A stretch of 64,000 bases of DNA from a virus. The notes beneath the pieces were generated by a model that saw nothing but the letters and a program-made list of their open reading frames with translations, was not told the DNA's origin and did no database searches. The DNA lies in IMG/VR virus record IMGVR_UViG_3300045988_180980; one strand, 5' to 3'. Made by a program: the position numbers and the translations under genes. This document shows positions 38,541 through 56,340 of the stretch, in pieces (within the stretch, counting starts at the first letter, position 1; each line of letters starts with the position of its first letter).

Positions 38541-38548
38541 TAATTTTG
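38541..38548 (+). promoter_or_regulatory. -7 box TAATTTTG for the LysR gene
   Basis: Matches TAnnTTTG 33 nt upstream of the ATG at 38581. Confidence 0.4.
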
Positions 38549-47510: not shown

Positions 47511-50500
47511 ATGGCAAAGAAATTTACAGACATCAACGACCTTCTGCGCAAGAAGGACAATGAGGAGGCACGCGAGGAAATAGAGTCCTCGGGTGTGCCG
47601 CAGAACGAGTGCCTGTCTGCCGACGAATTTGTGAAGCAGATAGTCACCCCCATCCAGGAGCTGCAGGCTGATGCCAAGAAGAGTGTCAAGTCCGTCAAGT
47701 TCAATAACATCACCTACGAGCCTGATGCAGACGGTGTGGTGTCGTTCAATCAGATGGTGGAGAGCGACAGTTATGCCATACGACTGGCATCCGACCTCAA
47801 GGGCGACCGTAACATCAAAGAGGGTGACACGCTGACAGCCAACGTGCGCTACATGGCACTGAAGATCACCCAACTGGGCGACCGCGTAAATTATCGTGAC
47901 GTGCCAGGCACACTGCGCATCGACATCAAGAAGGAGGGGACCGACACGTGGCAGAACCGCTACGTCCAGACCAACATCGTGTCACAGGACGAGAATTACG
48001 ATGCAGGGAGTGCGGCTTCCTACCCCGTGAGCGTAGAGATAGGCAAGTATCTGACAGAGGGCCGACAGGACGTGCGCATCAGAGTGACTTCCTACTATGA
48101 GGACGAGAACGGTGTGAAGCGTGAGTTCTTCGGCGACCTCATCTACTCCATCAATGCCGTAAACCTCACCGTGAAGAACCTCACCGACTGGTCGAAGCGC
48201 ATCCTGGCCTCTGACGGTGGATTCCCCTTCTCATTCTCCGTAATGGGAGCCGTTGACAAGAAGCTGCATGTCACCATGACGGGTGCCACGGGCACATGGA
48301 CGATGGAACCGAAGACATTCCTGGCCGACGAGCAGCGACCCGAAGCCAATCCCTACTCGTGGACACAGCAGGAGATTTCGGCTTACGGACTGTTGTCGCA
48401 CGGCGTGCATACCGTCACGGCATGGGTGACGTGCGATGACGGCATGGGCGGCGAATTGTCTTCGGAAGTGCAGGTCAACCGCTTCATGGTGGTAAATGCA
48501 GCCACCGCCTCTCCTGCACAACTGGTACAGCCCTACCTGATGCTCCAGGGCGTGCAGAGTGTGGTGGAGAACTATGTGCGCACGGTCATCTCCAACTTTG
48601 CCGTGTGGGTGCCGAAGAGTGCCGATGCCCCCACTCTGCCTGCCACCGACCCGCTGCCCGTGAGCATCCGTATCACGAATGCCGGTGACGGCGACCTGGA
48701 CTACACGGCTTCCTACTATGTGTCTGAGCAGAAAGTCGTGGTGGGCGAGCGCTACCCGATTGACACCACCATCGAGATTGAGAACTCATCCTCTGGCGAG
48801 AGCCCTGCCTCTTACCAGGCATACTTGCGCATATTTCGATACAACGGCGACGAGGTGGTGAACTTCCTGCGTGAGAGCCAGGGCAACCGCTTTGTGGTGT
48901 TCACCGTGGATAACAAGAACGACTATTCGCCCGTGGCAGGTGCCCACTTCTATCTTGACCCCAAGGTGCGCAACAACACCGAGACGCACTTCCAGACCAT
49001 CGTCAACAAGCAGACGCAGGAGGAAGTGCCTTCTGTGTGGAACGGCTTTTCGGGTACGGGCGATGCCTGGGTGCAGGATGACGATGGCGTGAAGGTGCTC
49101 CGTATTCCGAGCGGACGAACGATTGTCATCGGTTACGAACCGTTTGAAGCTTTCAAAACGAACCCGTCGGCGGCAATGTCGCTTGAGATGGAGTTTGCCG
49201 TGCGCAACATTACCGCCGAAGACGATCCTGTAATCAGTGTGTCGCAAACCATTGAGAGTACGCTGGAGAAACTGGGCATCATCATCAAGCCGCTCACGGG
49301 TGCGGTATGGGCGCAGGAAAAGCAGAACGAGGATGACCAGGACTTCGGCTTCGAGGAAGACAAGCGCGTGCATCTTGTGGTGACGCTCACTCCGGCTCTC
49401 GTGGCCAAGGGCAGCGACGAGTTCAAATGGCAGACACCCAACAAGACTCCTTCCAACCGACCCACCGTGAAGGTGTATGTCAACGGCAAGCCGCAGCGTG
49501 CCGTACAGTATAGTGTCGATACCAACGGCGTGTGGATTCAGGGCGAAGGACACGGCGGCATCCGTCTGGGACACCCGTCGTGCGACCTCGACATCTACAC
49601 CATCCGCTGCTATCGTGGCGTTACGCTGTCGGCACAGAACGTGCTTCAGAACTTCACAGCCACACGCCCCGATGCCGAAACAAAGAACGCCATCCGCCAG
49701 CGCAACGATATACTGGATGGCAATGGGCGCGTCTCTTATCGCAAGGTGAAGGCGAAAAACAAGCGATGCCTGACCCTTGTGGGCACGGACAACTACAAGA
49801 TGAACCAGGACAAGAAGGTGGGCTATGCCTGCTATTGGAACATCGACTACTACGACAACACCGGCAACTACGTGCCTGAACTGTCGGGCACCATAGGCAA
49901 GGCTGCTTATCTGGCTTATGTGGCTGGCACACTCGGCGGCAAGAAGTGTCTGATGAATACTGCTCAGGGAAGCACAGCCAACACGTATTGGTGGAACAAC
50001 GAGCAGACGAAGTGCGATAAAGTCACGTACCGCATCCGCGTCCCCTTCCTTACACTTCATCCCGAATTTGGATGGAAGCCCGAGAAGTCGGACTTCACCG
50101 AGACGGCAGTTGCCTCGTTCCCTCTCTATCTCAACGGCGAGCAGATACAGGGTGCCGACGTGGCTACGCTCTCTGAGACACAGAAGGAGAAGCTGGAGAT
50201 TGAGGTGGTAGATGGATGGATTGACGGCAACGGCATGTATCACGGACAGTTCTACACGCCTGTCGTCGGTGGTCCGAAAGCCACGAAACTCGTCAACAAG
50301 ATCAACTATGCCTCGCCGATGCAGTCGCACAAGATGGGTGCCACGCGCCTCTACAACGACGTGATGAAGGCCGTGTGCAAGGATGAACTGCCCGACTGGT
50401 TTGCGGCGAACCCCGAGGCACGTTTTGCCGTGTACGAGGACTGTTATTACTTCTTCAATCAGCCCGAAGGCGAGAAGGAGCCGGTGTTTGTCGGCTTCGG

Positions 50501-53500
50501 CACATTCGGCTCGGGCAAGTGCGACAAGGCTACGTGGGGATATGACAAGAGCAAGATGTTTGCCTTCGAGGGCCTGAACAACAACCTTCCGCTGTGCGAC
50601 TTCCGCGTACCTGCCGACGAGGATGTGACGTATAGCGTGGATGATGAGTCGTGGGTGTATAACGGCATCAAGTCGTTTGAGTACTCGTTGGGCAAGACGA
50701 ATGCTGACGAAACACCTGTGGCAAAGAACGATGCCCTGTTCCGCCGCTACTGCAACTTCATATATGCCCATGACGTGCGTATGCAGTACTTCCGTGGCGA
50801 CCGTGCCGCGTTTGACGCGCATTATGCCAACGTATATGACCGTGCCACGGCTGTGGGTGCCACGGATGCCGACACGCAATTGCTGGACGAGATGCAGACC
50901 ACGAAATACTGGCTGCGCGACGGTGACGAAGCGTTCCACCTGCTGCGCTTCAACTATGCAACAGGCAAGTTTGTAGATGCGGGCATCTGGACGGATGCCG
51001 ACGGATATAAGCCGGGTGTGCGCAACCTCTCCACGGATGTCATCACGAAAGCCACCTACGAGGAGTGGAAGCAGAGCGAGGATGTGGGCGACTATGCCAA
51101 GCTGAACACCCGTTTCCAAATGGCCATCGCATCGTCGTTCAACGAGCACTGCCGCAAGTATCTCAACAAGAAAAACCACCAGGTACACTACACCCTGGTG
51201 AACTACCTCTATGCCGGTACTGACAACTGCTCTAAGAACACCTATTACACTATAGACATCACCACATCCCAGTGCTGGCTCTATCAGGACGATCTCGACA
51301 CCATATTCAAAACCGACAACAACGGACGACAGACGAAGGTGTATTTCCTCTCGCGCTATTTCGACGTGCAGGACACCGAGGCAGGCCTGAAGAAGCAGAA
51401 GGACTATGAGGGCACGGCTTCGGCATTGTTCAATGTCATGGAGGCGGCATGGGAGACGCTCGACCCAACCGCACTGCCTGCCAATATGCGTGAGGTGCTC
51501 ACGGCGATGTGTACGCTCGTGGGGGCCAACGAGGAGCTTGACGGCCTGACCACCACACAGCGCCAGACACCTTACGGCTGTCTGCATAAGTACTTCTTCG
51601 CTACGCAGAAGTATTTTGCAGAAGTGGCGTGGGCGGAACAGCAGCGCATCCGATACGACTGGCCCGCATCGTGGGGCTACGAGAGTTACGGCAACCAGGC
51701 ACGTGGTGTGCTGGCCGTGACGCAGGGCATAGGCGACCAGCTCGAGAGTGAGGTGCAATACATGACCCGCCGCCTGGCTCTCGTATGTTCGTATGCGGCA
51801 TGGGGCGACTTCTCCAGTGGCGTAAATACAGGCTCGACAGGTCTGGTGGATGCCAGCGCTGGTTTGCAGTTCACGCCTGGCTCGGGGCGCACAGGAGGTG
51901 AATATACGTTCGACCTCGTACCGCATCAGTTCCTCTACCCCTGCGGTGTGCGCGACCGTGCGCTCATCAACCCTCATATCCGCATGATACCGGGGCGGAA
52001 CTACACATTTACCGTCAACCCGGCATCTACGCCTATCCCAGGCGACTCGTCAGTAGGATTGGCCGCTACCAACTACTACCGCTCCATCGGCAACGTGGGC
52101 AATATGGTGGTGGGCAACAACAACTTCACCATCCAAGGTCGCCGCCTGACGGAGTTCATTGCCGAGCCGAAGGCGGGTAGCAGTGCCTTTGCCCCGAAGC
52201 AGATAGATGTGGATGCAGCCAACCTGCAGAGGTTGTCGCTCAATGGCGTAAGCACCTCCAGCGGCACATTCAACCTCTCCAAGGCTTCGCGTCTGCAGAC
52301 ACTCGACCTGCGCGGCACGCGGTACGGACAGGTGCGTATGCCGTCTTCGCCCCAACTCACCGAGGCGCGTTTTGGTGCCGAACTGTCGCAACTGGAGGTG
52401 CGCGACATGCAGCAGTTGCAAACGCTCACGCTGGACGGATATTCCCGCCTGACTTCGCTCACCGTGCTCAACTGCGGGTTTGACACCCTCGCCCTGGTGC
52501 GCGGATGCAGCGAGGCGGCTGCCAAACTGAGCACGTTGCGCATCAACGGAATTGAATGGACGGATGTTGCCCCTGCCATACTATCGTATATGGTGGGCAT
52601 CTCCTACTGCGAGATAGCGGGGCGCATAGCAGTCACGAGCGGACAGAACGTGGATGCCGAACTGAAGCTGGCACTGCTGCGCAAGTTCGGCAACATCGAC
52701 TCTGCCGACAACACCATATATATCATTTATTCGCTCCGTAACGTGACAGGGCTGCAGATCACCACACAGCGTTTTGTCATTGCCGAGGCGGGCGACTATC
52801 CCTACCAGTGCAGCGTGCTGCCGTCGATGGCAAACAACTTCTCCGACATCAGGTGGGAGGTGTCGGCCAACGACTTCAATGTGACTGTGGATGCCGAGAC
52901 GGGTGTGCTGCATGCGCCTATGGTGGGCGAGGAGAGCAACAATCCCACGGCCACGCTCACGGTGACGGCATATCTGACAGGCGGTGGCACAGTGTCGGCC
53001 AGCGTGGTGCTGAAGCTGTTCAACCGCATCCCCAAGCTGGGGGACTTTGCTTACTACAACGGTGAGTTCGACTCGGTGCTTTACCCGGGCAAGACGGTCA
53101 TCGGGTGGGTGTATAAGGTCACGCCGTATGCCGACCTTCCCTCCGACCTGCTCAACGAGTACCTGCAGGACGAGGAGACGGCTGCGCAATACAATGCTGG
53201 CAAGACACTGTACGAAGTGCTCGTTGAGGGTACTGATGATGTGACGCTGCGCACCACCAACGGCGCCAGTTCGTTCAACGTGATGGCATGGGGCATCTAT
53301 CCCGAGGATGCCGGCACGCAGGGCTTCACGCCCGAAGAGCGGGCACCCATTGCCGAGGCGCTGCAGACGACCGATGACAACCTGCTGGACATACCTGACG
53401 TGCGCAACTGTACATCAAGCGGACTGACCGATACCGAAGGTCAACCTACCCGTTACATCCGTGATAACAACGCCTATGACGACAGCACAGCCGACGGCTT

Positions 53501-54212
53501 CCCCAAGTTCGACGGTAATGTTGCTCCTAACAGGTGGGACGGCAGGAGGTGTACGCGGGCCATCGTGGAGCATGCCAACAAGGTGCTGGAGAAGTACGTG
53601 GCCGACGGTGTGATGACCGACAGCGAGGGGCACAACATCTTCGACTACCTGCCTGCCGGACGCGGACATATCATCCCTGAGAACAACGAGGAACTGGCCG
53701 ACCTGCTGGTGGCGCTGGGCAATCTGGGCGGCGGCGACCGCTGGATGCAGTTGGCCTATCCCGCTGCACGTGCCTGTGTGCTGTACGAACCCACCTCGGG
53801 CGGTAAGGCCATCGCGGGCCTTGCATCGGCGTTTGCCAAGGGCAGGTGGTATCTGCACGCTCCTGGCGATGAGTTCCGTCTGTACGTCTTCTTCCGCAAC
53901 AGCCGCGCCCTCTCGCCTGCCGACACAGGTACGCCCACCTCGGAGTTCTCCGACGAAGACAACCCTCTGCGCCCCACCGAGCCCACCGATGCCCGCCGCC
54001 CCTTCTATGCCAATCTGCAAAAAAGGTCCAAGGAGGCAAAATTAAACTGCCCGATAAGCGTACCCGCGCAGCCCGATCGCTGGTCATCCGTTGAGCAAGT
54101 ACGCCTTGCCTCCTGGTATGTCAGTTTCGGCAACGGCAACATCGGCCTCGCCGGCGGCAAGTCTTACAGGTTCCGGGTGCGCCCTGTCGTCGCTTTTAAC
54201 TTCGCCCTTTAG
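47511..54212 (+). CDS. giant tail fibre / receptor-binding protein; DGR target with C-terminal variable region
   Basis: 2233 aa. There are LRR-like repeats at about 52221..52560 and a Big_2-like Ig segment at about 52750..53020. The C-terminus is DUF1566/C-type-lectin-like (WYLHAPGDEFRLYVF ... RWSSVE...RFRVRPVVAF). Its last ~130 nt are repeated as the TR. Confidence 0.85.
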   Translation: MAKKFTDINDLLRKKDNEEAREEIESSGVPQNECLSADEFVKQIVTPIQELQADAKKSVKSVKFNNITYEPDADGVVSFNQMVESDSYAIRLASDLKGDRNIKEGDTLTANVRYMALKITQLGDRVNYRDVPGTLRIDIKKEGTDTWQNRYVQTNIVSQDENYDAGSAASYPVSVEIGKYLTEGRQDVRIRVTSYYEDENGVKREFFGDLIYSINAVNLTVKNLTDWSKRILASDGGFPFSFSVMGAVDKKLHVTMTGATGTWTMEPKTFLADEQRPEANPYSWTQQEISAYGLLSHGVHTVTAWVTCDDGMGGELSSEVQVNRFMVVNAATASPAQLVQPYLMLQGVQSVVENYVRTVISNFAVWVPKSADAPTLPATDPLPVSIRITNAGDGDLDYTASYYVSEQKVVVGERYPIDTTIEIENSSSGESPASYQAYLRIFRYNGDEVVNFLRESQGNRFVVFTVDNKNDYSPVAGAHFYLDPKVRNNTETHFQTIVNKQTQEEVPSVWNGFSGTGDAWVQDDDGVKVLRIPSGRTIVIGYEPFEAFKTNPSAAMSLEMEFAVRNITAEDDPVISVSQTIESTLEKLGIIIKPLTGAVWAQEKQNEDDQDFGFEEDKRVHLVVTLTPALVAKGSDEFKWQTPNKTPSNRPTVKVYVNGKPQRAVQYSVDTNGVWIQGEGHGGIRLGHPSCDLDIYTIRCYRGVTLSAQNVLQNFTATRPDAETKNAIRQRNDILDGNGRVSYRKVKAKNKRCLTLVGTDNYKMNQDKKVGYACYWNIDYYDNTGNYVPELSGTIGKAAYLAYVAGTLGGKKCLMNTAQGSTANTYWWNNEQTKCDKVTYRIRVPFLTLHPEFGWKPEKSDFTETAVASFPLYLNGEQIQGADVATLSETQKEKLEIEVVDGWIDGNGMYHGQFYTPVVGGPKATKLVNKINYASPMQSHKMGATRLYNDVMKAVCKDELPDWFAANPEARFAVYEDCYYFFNQPEGEKEPVFVGFGTFGSGKCDKATWGYDKSKMFAFEGLNNNLPLCDFRVPADEDVTYSVDDESWVYNGIKSFEYSLGKTNADETPVAKNDALFRRYCNFIYAHDVRMQYFRGDRAAFDAHYANVYDRATAVGATDADTQLLDEMQTTKYWLRDGDEAFHLLRFNYATGKFVDAGIWTDADGYKPGVRNLSTDVITKATYEEWKQSEDVGDYAKLNTRFQMAIASSFNEHCRKYLNKKNHQVHYTLVNYLYAGTDNCSKNTYYTIDITTSQCWLYQDDLDTIFKTDNNGRQTKVYFLSRYFDVQDTEAGLKKQKDYEGTASALFNVMEAAWETLDPTALPANMREVLTAMCTLVGANEELDGLTTTQRQTPYGCLHKYFFATQKYFAEVAWAEQQRIRYDWPASWGYESYGNQARGVLAVTQGIGDQLESEVQYMTRRLALVCSYAAWGDFSSGVNTGSTGLVDASAGLQFTPGSGRTGGEYTFDLVPHQFLYPCGVRDRALINPHIRMIPGRNYTFTVNPASTPIPGDSSVGLAATNYYRSIGNVGNMVVGNNNFTIQGRRLTEFIAEPKAGSSAFAPKQIDVDAANLQRLSLNGVSTSSGTFNLSKASRLQTLDLRGTRYGQVRMPSSPQLTEARFGAELSQLEVRDMQQLQTLTLDGYSRLTSLTVLNCGFDTLALVRGCSEAAAKLSTLRINGIEWTDVAPAILSYMVGISYCEIAGRIAVTSGQNVDAELKLALLRKFGNIDSADNTIYIIYSLRNVTGLQITTQRFVIAEAGDYPYQCSVLPSMANNFSDIRWEVSANDFNVTVDAETGVLHAPMVGEESNNPTATLTVTAYLTGGGTVSASVVLKLFNRIPKLGDFAYYNGEFDSVLYPGKTVIGWVYKVTPYADLPSDLLNEYLQDEETAAQYNAGKTLYEVLVEGTDDVTLRTTNGASSFNVMAWGIYPEDAGTQGFTPEERAPIAEALQTTDDNLLDIPDVRNCTSSGLTDTEGQPTRYIRDNNAYDDSTADGFPKFDGNVAPNRWDGRRCTRAIVEHANKVLEKYVADGVMTDSEGHNIFDYLPAGRGHIIPENNEELADLLVALGNLGGGDRWMQLAYPAARACVLYEPTSGGKAIAGLASAFAKGRWYLHAPGDEFRLYVFFRNSRALSPADTGTPTSEFSDEDNPLRPTEPTDARRPFYANLQKRSKEAKLNCPISVPAQPDRWSSVEQVRLASWYVSFGNGNIGLAGGKSYRFRVRPVVAFNFAL
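54065..54195 (+). repeat. DGR variable repeat (VR)
   Basis: 131 nt homologous to 55002..55129. The flanks are identical (20 nt ATCGCTGGTCATCCGTTGAG and 29 nt CAGGTTCCGGGTGCGCCCTGTCGTCGCTT). In the diverged centre most TR adenines are replaced. Confidence 0.8.
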
Positions 54213-54223
54213 CCTTAAACACT

Positions 54224-54246
54224 CGGTGCGCCTTAATAGCGCACCG
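54224..54246 (+). promoter_or_regulatory. hairpin downstream of VR (candidate DGR target-recognition element)
   Basis: CGGTGCGC-cttaata-GCGCACCG, an 8-bp perfect stem beginning 29 nt after the end of VR homology. Confidence 0.5.
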
Positions 54247-54284
54247 CATGCGCGAGAGGACAAGTTGCACAAGATTAGGTAATT

Positions 54285-54320
54285 ACACTCTCCGCGCAAT
54301 AGCGTGGAGAGTGTTTTCTC
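54285..54320 (+). terminator. intrinsic terminator after the DGR target gene
   Basis: ACACTCTCC...GGAGAGTGT stem followed by TTTTC. Confidence 0.6.
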
Positions 54321-54363
54321 AAAACTTTCTTTCCCAACGCTTGCATGTGTTAGAAAAAAGTCG

Positions 54364-54371
54364 TACTTTTG
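54364..54371 (+). promoter_or_regulatory. Bacteroidota-type -7 box TACTTTTG (avd-TR-RT promoter)
   Basis: Matches TAnnTTTG, 31 nt upstream of the avd ATG. Confidence 0.4.
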
Positions 54372-54401
54372 CGTTGTTCTTAGACGTTAAGGACTAATAC
54401 C

Positions 54402-54860
54402 ATGGAGAACAAACAAGATATAAATAATACAGACAAAACAGAAACTGTTCACATAACGGAGGAGCAGAAAAGGAGAAGCGGCAAACTCAAGAAAGAGGTT
54501 GTCAAAACCATCCGACAGCAAGCCGTTTACCGTGATGCGCAGAACCTGTTTTTTGTCCTGGCACAGACACGCAAGACTTGCCCTGTCAACTTCCGTGCTG
54601 TGCTGGAGACCCTGTATCTGGGGTGCAATGCCGTACTGGTGGCGCTGTCGCTCGCCTATTCCGAGCCGGCGGCGAGGGTCGATCAACTGACCATCGCCAG
54701 TGCGCACCTCGATGCAGTGCGTACATCAATGGGTATTCTGCGCTCCATGGGCTGCATGAGCCGGGATGATTACAAGAAAGCCAAGTCGCTGGCAGAATCC
54801 TGCACCAAGCAGGTACTTGCCTGGCGGGCGTCTTCAAGGGGTCTGTGTCCCGCGATGTAG
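54402..54860 (+). CDS. avd: Avd-like accessory variability determinant (four-helix-bundle protein)
   Basis: 152 aa, basic and helical (…AQNLFFVLAQTRK…LYLGCNAVLVALSLAY…AHLDAVRTSMGILRSMG…). It sits between the target gene and the TR-RT, the canonical DGR position. Confidence 0.7.
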   Translation: MENKQDINNTDKTETVHITEEQKRRSGKLKKEVVKTIRQQAVYRDAQNLFFVLAQTRKTCPVNFRAVLETLYLGCNAVLVALSLAYSEPAARVDQLTIASAHLDAVRTSMGILRSMGCMSRDDYKKAKSLAESCTKQVLAWRASSRGLCPAM

Positions 54861-54885
54861 TAATGTTCAATCACGAGAGTGAATT

Positions 54886-56340
54886 ATGATTCGCGGAAGT
54901 GTATCACTGGAGATGTTAGAAGGGGGGCTTACCTATCATGGGCTTCGGTCATACGGACGGGAGACCCTGAATGGTTACGAAGATGCAAAGCCCCAATACG
55001 ACGCGCAGACCAATCGCTGGTCATCCGTTGAGAGCAACCGGTCCAACGCCTGGAATTGCAATTTCAACGACGGCAACCTCAACAACAACAACAAGTATAA
55101 CAGGTTCCGGGTGCGCCCTGTCGTCGCTTATGACACTCCTGCCGACTTCCTCAATCTCGTGTTTGCCGCTTTCCATGACTGCTGCCGCACCAAGCGTACC
55201 AGTGCAGAGTGCATAGCCTATTGTGAGCGGGCGCAGCAGGACCTGCCGCTGCTGGCTCACGAACTATATACAGGCACCTACCAGCCTGGCCCCAGCACGT
55301 GTTTCCTGGTCAAATATCCCAAGTACCGCGAGGTGTTTGCTGCCGGATTCCGCGATCGTATCGTACACCACTTCATCTATCTTCTGCTCAACCCCTGTTT
55401 CGAGGAGCGCTTTGTGGCGCAAGGCAATGTGTCGTTCAACTGCCGCAAGGGCTTCGGCACACTGGCAGCGCAGCAGGCGGCATTCGAGGCCATCCGTACC
55501 GCAACCGACAATTACCGCACGCCTGCCGTGGTATATCGGGGCGACCTGGTGTCCTTCTTCATGTCCATAGACAAGCGCATCCTGTGGAGCAGGCTGGAGC
55601 CGTTCATACACGAGGAGTACCACGGACCCTATCTCACCCAGCTGCTCACGGTGACACGCACCGTGGTGTTCCATTGTCCCGAGAAGAACTGCCTGTTCAG
55701 TACCGACCCAGCCGAATGGGCGCTGCACGTGCCTGTCCATAAGTCGCTCTTCACCAACGGCGACTCTTTCGGTATGCCTATCGGCAATCTCACTACACAG
55801 ATATTCGCCAACTTCCTCATGTCCTTCTTCGACGAGTTCGTCATCCGATGGATGAAGGGTCACGGACTGGACGTGCACTACGTCCGCTTTGTGGACGACT
55901 TCCTGTTCATCTGTCGCAACAAACACTTGCTCAAGTGCCTGATAGCCGACGCAGCGGTGTTCCTGCAGAGCGAACTTGGCCTGACGCTCCACTTCGACAA
56001 GCATCATTTCCAGCCCGCCGCACACGGAGTGCTCTTCGTGGGCGCTTATCTCAAGAACTGGCGCATGTATCTCTCTGGCCGCACCGTGGCACGCTTCATC
56101 GAGCGCATGCACGGATTCGACGGCATGCTGCTGAACAAGCAGTGCATCACGCTGGCCGACACGCAGAGGATGGAACAGGTGGTGAACTCCTACCTGGGAT
56201 TCCTGAACGGGAAGCGCACCTACAACATACGCCGGGCGGCACTCGCAGCCATGTGCCCACGCTTCTATGACCATGCCTACATACGCGGCCGCTACACCTC
56301 AATACGCTCACGCCGCAGGCTGAAAACGGCATCATTGTAA
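54886..56340 (+). CDS. DGR reverse transcriptase (the ORF includes the TR in frame)
   Basis: PKYREVFAAGFRDRIVHH, NCRKGFGTLAA, GMPIGNLTTQIFANF (the DGR-type IGxxxSQ block, 55780..55800), YVRFVDDFLFI (catalytic xVDD) and LFVGAYL are all present. There is no in-frame ATG between 54886 and the RT domain. Confidence 0.9.
   Translation: MIRGSVSLEMLEGGLTYHGLRSYGRETLNGYEDAKPQYDAQTNRWSSVESNRSNAWNCNFNDGNLNNNNKYNRFRVRPVVAYDTPADFLNLVFAAFHDCCRTKRTSAECIAYCERAQQDLPLLAHELYTGTYQPGPSTCFLVKYPKYREVFAAGFRDRIVHHFIYLLLNPCFEERFVAQGNVSFNCRKGFGTLAAQQAAFEAIRTATDNYRTPAVVYRGDLVSFFMSIDKRILWSRLEPFIHEEYHGPYLTQLLTVTRTVVFHCPEKNCLFSTDPAEWALHVPVHKSLFTNGDSFGMPIGNLTTQIFANFLMSFFDEFVIRWMKGHGLDVHYVRFVDDFLFICRNKHLLKCLIADAAVFLQSELGLTLHFDKHHFQPAAHGVLFVGAYLKNWRMYLSGRTVARFIERMHGFDGMLLNKQCITLADTQRMEQVVNSYLGFLNGKRTYNIRRAALAAMCPRFYDHAYIRGRYTSIRSRRRLKTASL
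55002..55129 (+). repeat. DGR template repeat (TR)
   Basis: AAC-rich (…AAC CTC AAC AAC AAC AAC AAG TAT AAC…) homologue of the VR, located between avd and the RT domain. Confidence 0.8.

Follow-up and report, generated by a model that had tools for sequence, protein, structure and literature searches.

A probably functional diversity-generating retroelement of a gut Bacteroidales phage, with its template repeat in frame inside the reverse transcriptase gene

Bordetella phage BPP-1 carries a diversity-generating retroelement (DGR; mtd-avd-TR-brt) in which a target gene with a C-terminal variable repeat (VR) is followed by avd, a template repeat (TR) and a reverse transcriptase (RT) gene, and in which diversification is adenine-specific; the BPP-1 target is 381 aa long. 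Here we describe a locus at positions 47,511 to 56,340 of a 64,000-nucleotide stretch of viral DNA, IMG/VR record IMGVR_UViG_3300045988_180980 (the window), which shares these parts and this specificity, together with a G+C-rich initiation of mutagenic homing (IMH) block whose tail diverges, a hairpin following the VR, the Avd fold and homology in the RT domain. It differs from BPP-1 in three respects. The TR of BPP-1 is non-coding, lies between avd and brt and is followed by a spacer, whereas that of the window is in frame in the RT open reading frame (ORF). The RT of the window is about 85-90 aa longer at its N-terminus and has IGNLTTQ as motif 4 in place of the IGSLTSQ of BPP-1. Finally, the target is a protein of 2233 aa, and its (sub-threshold) Pfam affinity is to Lcl_C/DUF1566 rather than to Mtd.

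DGRs with presumably tail-related targets of about 2000 aa have been described in temperate Bacteroidaceae phages (Gut Microbes 2025, PMC12694917), and Bacteroides phage BS-TP1 (PQ571274; 111.7 kb; PMC12694917) is the closest cultured relative of the window. The two share the order of a target of about 2200 aa, a four-helix-bundle protein and an RT of about 490 aa, in a phage genome of about 100 kb. They also share the TR inside the RT ORF, a VR one codon longer than the TR at an AAC run, and a hairpin just after the VR. The RTs are 47% identical and the target is 25% identical to BS-TP1 gp27 over about 2000 aa (aa 242-2233). In contrast, the two are distant in sequence, without a DNA match in the phage collection, and the relatives of the window are named as Prevotella or Bacteroidales metagenome-assembled genomes (MAGs). 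We found no mention of the TR-in-ORF layout or of VR population structure in PMC12694917, as far as it was searched. The window resembles Legionella-type DGRs (category 'd', CLec2 VRs with DUF1566/DUF823/Fib_succ_major; PMC5758913) in its weak DUF1566/Lcl_C matches in the VR region, but its target is of phage structural size and not a bacterial lipoprotein, and all its matches fall below the Pfam cut-off. The window fits a clade of BS-TP1-like Bacteroidales phage DGRs, with an RT of about 470-500 aa, a TR peptide in frame at aa ~40-85, avd and a target of about 2000 aa.

An earlier note on this DNA, made from the letters of the window, had called the locus a DGR. The DGR-type RT, the Avd fold, and the invariant TR with adenine-specific VR diversity in related assemblies bear this out, and we put the probability that the locus is a functional DGR of a widespread gut Bacteroidales phage at roughly 0.9. 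As a DGR it belongs to a known class, of which it is an ordinary representative, and it adds little, gut Bacteroidales phage DGRs with targets of about 2000 aa having already been published; only the embedded TR and an odd VR allele in the window go beyond the ordinary. The value of the locus lies in its abundance, in the marked VR allele and in the template inside the RT gene.

Diversity of the variable repeat among related genomes

The window was compared with 23 related assemblies, giving 24 genomes, and 18 canonical VRs were scored per site. The TR is identical in 20 of the 24 genomes, with single-nucleotide polymorphism (SNP) or length alleles in L014, L023 and L024/L025, and every VR is different. 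In the canonical VRs, departures from the TR are seen in 299 of 615 cells templated by adenine, compared with 9 of 1635 other cells (p~1e-182), and 31 of the 34 adenine positions are variable. The diversity is confined to the VR even between very close relatives: L006 and L007 have 0 differences in about 3800 nt of flank (52430-56340) and 16 in the VR, and L015 differs from the window at 5 sites in 3466 nt of flank and at 36 in the VR. A variable VR beside an invariant TR was the test of activity that the earlier note had set, and this is the pattern in the related assemblies.

The rare TR alleles reappear in their own VRs, in L014 (GGC to GGA) and in L023 (CGC to CGA, and GAC GGC to AAT GGT). 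This suggests that information flows from TR to VR. The mirrored SNPs of L014 and L023 would represent natural marker transfer from TR to VR, which argues for mutagenic retrohoming.

In the window itself, a repeat search returned the VR and TR at the coordinates proposed previously and as a unique pair, with arms at 54065-54095/55002-55032 and 54158-54200/55092-55134. Each of the two conserved repeat ends occurs exactly twice in the 64 kb, against about 0 expected. The VR lies at the target ORF's 3' end, 14 nt before the stop codon. It is 3 nt longer than the TR, a difference that followed from the lengths given earlier (131 and 128 nt) and had been passed over without comment; the additional codon is an insertion in the AAC run. 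The count of A-specific substitutions that had been proposed as a check was made on a codon-by-codon alignment, in which 22 of 36 TR adenines are changed compared with 13 of 96 other bases (odds ratio 10, Fisher p=1.5e-7), so the adenine bias is real. The description of a centre in which most TR adenines are replaced thus holds for the adenines, but 12 non-adenine mismatches lie there as well, and the flanks described as 100 percent identical include two adenine-site changes in the 5' flank of the VR. At the 3' end the repeats share a 28-nt identical G+C-rich block (54168-54195 = 55102-55129), after which the tails diverge (VR TTAAC..., TR ATGAC...). This arrangement corresponds to the IMH/IMH* of DGRs, judged by sequence. 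The coordinates of the locus are collected in Table 1.

Table 1. Features of the DGR locus in the window
Feature	Position	Strand	Basis
Target gene, 2233 aa, large multi-domain protein; last ~45 codons are the VR	47511..54212	+	ORF list
Conserved C-terminal module of target, ~150 aa; moves together with avd-TR-RT	53765..54212	+	near-invariance (VR excepted) among 15 genomes
VR, 131 nt; differences from TR span 54072-54166	54065..54195	+	repeat search, alignment
IMH-like G+C-rich 3' block of VR, identical to TR	54168..54195	+	same in every relative sampled
Perfect 8-bp G+C-rich hairpin, 7-nt loop, 12 nt past target stop codon	54224..54246	+	fold search
13-bp hairpin (54285-54314) then TTTTCT; terminator-like end of target transcript	54285..54320	+	fold, z=-4.5 for 135-nt stretch
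TACTTTTG, Bacteroidota-type -7 box (TAnnTTTG), 38 nt before avd ATG	54364..54371	+	motif scan
avd, 152 aa, accessory four-helix-bundle protein	54402..54860	+	AlphaFold2 model, Foldseek
RT ORF, 484 aa; ~85-90-aa N-terminal extension containing TR, then DGR-type RT domain	54886..56340	+	Pfam, PHROGs, PDB comparison
TR, 128 nt, 34-36 adenines mostly in AAC/AAT codons	55002..55129	+	repeat search, alignment
IMH*-like 3' end of TR; shared G+C-rich block, then diverging tail	55102..55134	+	repeat comparison

Length changes at the AAC run recur in the population. An additional NNC codon in the (AAC)4 run is found in the VRs of L005, L021, L023, L069 and L070, in the odd allele and in BS-TP1. Additionally, a TR allele with (AAC)5 for (AAC)4 is present in L024, L025 and P0132; L024 carries it together with the odd five-codon VR. 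AAC-associated indels in DGRs have been attributed to template slippage (Wu et al., PMC5758913), so this is a known feature; here it appears to be unusually frequent and always an insertion. Slippage of the RT on the (AAC)4 run would add a codon to a substantial minority of VRs.

A scheme for the locus can be proposed. A transcript would probably start at the TAnnTTTG box before avd and carry avd and the RT ORF, with the TR at the 5' end of the latter. Avd and RT would copy the TR into cDNA, mis-incorporating opposite adenines. This cDNA would then take the place of the VR at the 3' end of the gene for the 2233-aa target, with the G+C-rich IMH block that both repeats share, and probably also the downstream hairpin, acting as guides. 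We infer this homing mechanism from the BPP-1 paradigm; the outcome that the genomes display is adenine-specific VR diversity with an invariant TR.

Some points weigh against this view of the locus. Activity is read from differences between samples, each represented by an assembly. Motif 4 of the RT, IGNLTTQ, is invariant in the clade and has threonine where canonical (I/L)GxxxSQ has serine. That the N-terminal extension of the RT is translated is deduced from conservation of the frame, and the lectin fold and virion role of the target are suggested by analogy.

The variable repeat allele of the window

The window's own VR and TR are not a clean adenine-only pair. Eight of the twelve non-adenine mismatches fall within 16 nt (54096-54111), and gapped realignment could not remove them, no indel placement giving fewer than 12. 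In comparison with L001, a 96%-identical relative, every difference in 53956-54200 lies in 54072-54166. The core of this odd allele (GAGCAAGTACGCCTTGCCTCCTGGTATGTCAGTTTCGGCAACGGCAACATC...) is found in the window and in L011, L016, L024 and L068. Recovery in these five assemblies, from different samples and assemblers, indicates that it is not an artefact. Its rate of non-adenine mismatch is 12/89 (13.5%) compared with 0.55% in the canonical VRs, a difference of about 25-fold. Non-A-to-N differences have been reported in 23% of DGRs, with up to 11 per target and at times with an indel (PMC5758913), and the 12 of the odd allele exceed this maximum.

The odd allele was probably not written by the resident TR. 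We see about an even chance that a related phage with another TR allele was its source, through templating or recombination, and that several lineages have kept it since then. Its length and codon register are preserved, as expected of a homologous but different template, and several of its changes (A to S, C to V, D to N and L to I) approach the family TR consensus (NSWN[V/C]NFNNGNI). TR alleles of close relatives each match one feature of it: D to N (GAC to AAC/AAT) in P0131, P0134 and L023, and (AAC)5 in P0132 and L024. An imported tract would also fit eight SNPs, a 1-nt insertion among them, that only L024 and L068 have. They lie immediately 3' of the odd VR, between the VR hairpin and the terminator hairpin (the region equivalent to 54247-54301), and are absent from the 18 canonical-allele genomes.

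Other observations count against a donor of this type. A search of the window for a second TR, with A allowed at any VR position, returned the VR itself only, and two degenerate-pattern scans of IMG/VR found no donor TR. The five odd alleles differ mutually at five sites, four of which are TR-adenine sites at the two edges. At two sites 3 nt apart all four combinations are seen, which simple import followed by inheritance fails to explain. The allele also occurs on at least three RT haplotypes, at least two of which are found with canonical VRs as well. This leaves two readings, to which we give a low probability. Diversification in the wild could consist largely of short-patch or single-site adenine changes, or a co-infecting relative could supply the TR from which VRs are written in trans, with exchange between phages afterwards. 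The 12 non-adenine markers are unchanged in five samples while the TR-adenine sites at the edges keep changing, and such markers can reveal homing tract lengths or trans templating. If true, short-patch or trans templating would modify the textbook picture of DGR homing, in which the whole VR is replaced and only in cis.

It is also doubtful that the odd allele, with its 12 non-adenine differences and additional codon, arose when the resident DGR itself carried out a single retrohoming event of a non-canonical kind and low fidelity, and that it then spread. Such an event would have a precedent in the reported non-A-to-N differences that sometimes come with an indel (PMC5758913), sporadic non-adenine changes do occur in the population (9 in the 18 VRs, three of them in L023), and the scans of the window and IMG/VR recovered no donor. 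However, the difference between 0.55% and 13.5% per site is hard to reconcile with it, as are the clustering of 8 of the 12 changes in 54096-54111, the maintenance of length and register and the shift of several changes to the family TR consensus (A to S, C to V, D to N, L to I).

Decay of the element in the window genome, with the VR drifting by ordinary mutation and no longer being rewritten, is very improbable. About 63% of the VR/TR mismatches in the window are at adenines and the repeats differ in length, as decay might produce, and we take it that the pair would fail strict DGR-finder criteria. Drift is nevertheless excluded by the 300 nt on each side of the VR, which are 99-100% identical to canonical-allele relatives, all differences lying in 54072-54166. 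The window has an intact RT, avd and TR that do not differ from their counterparts in canonical-VR genomes (see L015 above), differences among carriers of the odd allele concentrate at TR-adenine sites, and a comparison of haplotypes showed no inactivating RT or IMH changes specific to odd-allele genomes. The least probable explanation is a repeat pair that lacks retroelement function and came from ordinary duplication or from faulty assembly of a polymorphic region: VRs are hard to assemble from mixed populations, but the constant TR, the adenine specificity over 18 independent VRs and the mirrored TR alleles rule out a duplication, the odd allele came from five samples and different assemblers, and a chimera of adenine-only variants cannot yield non-adenine differences.

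The template repeat within the reverse transcriptase gene

The earlier note had given the order of the locus as target-avd-TR-RT. The parts are present, and the recomputed ORF list of the window has the target, avd (152 aa) and RT (484 aa) ORFs at the coordinates given earlier, but the order is inexact as to the TR, which occupies codons 39-82 of the RT ORF, in frame, instead of the space between avd and RT. There it encodes ...AQTNRWSSVESNRSNAWNCNFNDGNLNNNNKYNRFRVRPVVAYD... in the same frame as the VR in the target. Gene callers used on public assemblies report an identical 484-aa RT product. The TR is in frame inside the RT ORF in 19 of 19 complete Bacteroidales MAG members of the clade (at the DNA level), and also in L008 and BS-TP1. 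L008 has an A+T-rich genome and an RT that is 49% identical, and its 14 VR/TR mismatches are all at adenines. Nearly all of the 120 best homologues of the window RT are 460-540 aa long, with query coverage of about 92-100%, and many have a precomputed Lcl_C match inside the RT protein. In DGR RTs that are more distant (27-35% identical), only 12-28 codons precede the RT domain, L046 and L058 being exceptions. No description of a TR inside an RT gene was found in the literature searched, which is not proof that the layout is undescribed.

L046 (a Eubacteriales MAG) and L058 (a Bacteroidales MAG) have RTs about 30% identical to that of the window in which a TR-like peptide, rich in N, precedes the RT domain in frame. 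Since they share the layout at such low identity, it may have arisen more than once.

The RT domain matches Pfam RVT_1 (2.8e-10, passing the cut-off) and phrog_1423 (2.7e-61, from aa 92). Among solved structures the closest is that of the Bordetella DGR RT (bRT; 8ub7_A, E=6e-16), retron and Cas-RT matches being far weaker. The alignment to 8ub7_A begins at aa 97 of the RT, opposite aa 23 of bRT, so the first ~85-90 residues form an N-terminal extension; in this alignment GMPIGNLTTQIFAN pairs with GIPIGSLTSQLFAN, and FVDD with YMDD. The motifs GMPIGNLTTQ, FVDD and LFVGAYL listed in the earlier note are all in the translation. Motif 4, the catalytic FVDD and 8ub7_A as best relative together place the RT in the DGR clade.

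Within the clade the junction between TR and RT domain differs in length, but only in steps of whole codons, and the RT ORFs have no internal start codon that is conserved. This suggests that RT translation starts upstream of the TR, probably at the ATG there, so that ribosomes would read through the template. The segment before the TR has a synonymous difference (pS) of 0.16-0.43 and a dN/dS of 0.5-0.95 (S about 20 sites), compared with a pS of 0.6-0.9 and a dN/dS of about 0.13 in the RT domain. The low pS with high dN/dS indicates that this stretch is conserved as nucleotides and not as protein, although over such small samples the conservation is suggestive only. The pre-TR peptide thus seems unconstrained, which hints that the sequence 5' of the TR acts at the RNA level; the RT mRNA itself may be the template RNA and the peptide largely a passenger. 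Taken together, the clade-wide presence of a template in frame inside the RT gene suggests that RT translation is coupled to the use of the same RNA as template.

Genomes with 1-7% divergence in the 3' half of the RT ORF and in neighbouring genes have 0-2 differences over the whole stretch of avd, pre-TR and TR (54402-55159, 758 nt), which is unusually strong conservation of nucleotides. A long-range helix in which the 5' region of avd (54476-54503) pairs with the stretch immediately 3' of the TR (55144-55171; 28 nt, 79% complementary) closes a predicted avd-TR fold. We have discarded this candidate: duplex predictions in 15 relatives had neither a conserved position nor excess stability, and other RT windows pair equally.

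The Avd-like call of the earlier note agrees with an AlphaFold2 (AF2) model built with 16 homologues, which has four helices at a mean confidence (pLDDT) of 82.9. Foldseek matched it to 2gsc, 4dwl (Bordetella Avd), 2rld and the Avd chains of 8ub7, with target-normalised TM scores of 0.78-0.87. By its modelled fold, the protein adjoining the RT is the accessory Avd four-helix bundle. A Pfam scan of the window Avd gave no bAvd-like match; homologues that are 57-61% identical match PF22296 (bAvd-like) at 1e-4, below the cut-off.

Target protein, transcription signals and phage context

The target matches phrog_24896 (unknown function; E=9e-52), and a Pfam scan gave no family at E<0.01, with only faint LRR and Big_2 hints. 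The locus had been assigned to a tail-fibre module, but nothing informative for such an annotation, which rests on analogy, came from searches of Pfam, PHROGs and PDB sequences. The DUF1566/C-type-lectin domain proposed for the C-terminus likewise draws on analogy and on Pfam matches below the cut-off: Lcl_C (PF07603) is matched by 7 of 19 homologues (best 4e-5) and by the C-terminus of L008 (6.5e-4), and the TR-encoded peptide has a sub-threshold Lcl_C/DUF1566 match at 3e-5. An AF2 model of the C-terminal 217 aa (pLDDT 42.5) was too poor for a fold search, and when PDB sequences were searched with a profile, the C-terminus (window 54090-54209) had only a marginal match (E=0.02), to the last 40 residues of 8q4e 'HbP1'. 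We presume, by analogy, that the C-terminal module is a lectin-like ligand-binding domain of the DUF1566/Lcl_C type. Homologues of the target C-terminus in the group with 60-66% identity (P0155, P0159 and P0165) show further VR length variants, P0165 having an insertion of 4-5 residues.

Upstream of about 53765 the target gene is mosaic among 15 genomes, and in L017 and L022 it is unrelated (932/1236 differences). From 53765 through avd, the TR and the 5' end of the RT ORF, all genomes compared (n=15) are nearly invariant outside the VR. This suggests that the last ~150 aa of the target and avd-TR-RT form an exchangeable module.

The perfect hairpin reported after the VR was recovered by the fold search and is a candidate cruciform or target-recognition element. 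Hairpins of different sequence are found at the matching position in L008 (10 bp) and BS-TP1 (about 11 bp).

The window is phage DNA, with a G+C content of 55%, and encodes a tape-measure protein and a head maturation protease. The host phage is a very common gut Bacteroidales phage of about 90-100 kb. Its exact Avd sequence is found in 484 blocks of a public assembly collection, on contigs of up to about 100 kb, which makes it a good natural system for the study of DGR behaviour in the wild, and RTs 98-99% identical to that of the window have been recovered from many gut metagenomes. No DNA similarity of the window to deposited phages was found in the phage collection, and Rfam and tRNA scans of the window returned nothing.

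The promoter box noted before avd is present as the sequence listed in Table 1. The window contains 28 TAnnTTTG boxes compared with 17.8 expected, a modest enrichment, and several on the + strand lie 30-40 nt before ORF starts (box/start 25391/25427, 34043/34073, 42135/42171 and 57160/57194). This frequent spacing points to a host in the phylum Bacteroidota. Further + strand boxes are located at 38541 and 62439. Finally, an ORF of 1063 aa runs antisense inside the target gene (48786-51977, minus strand) and is probably a shadow ORF of the G+C-rich repetitive coding region.

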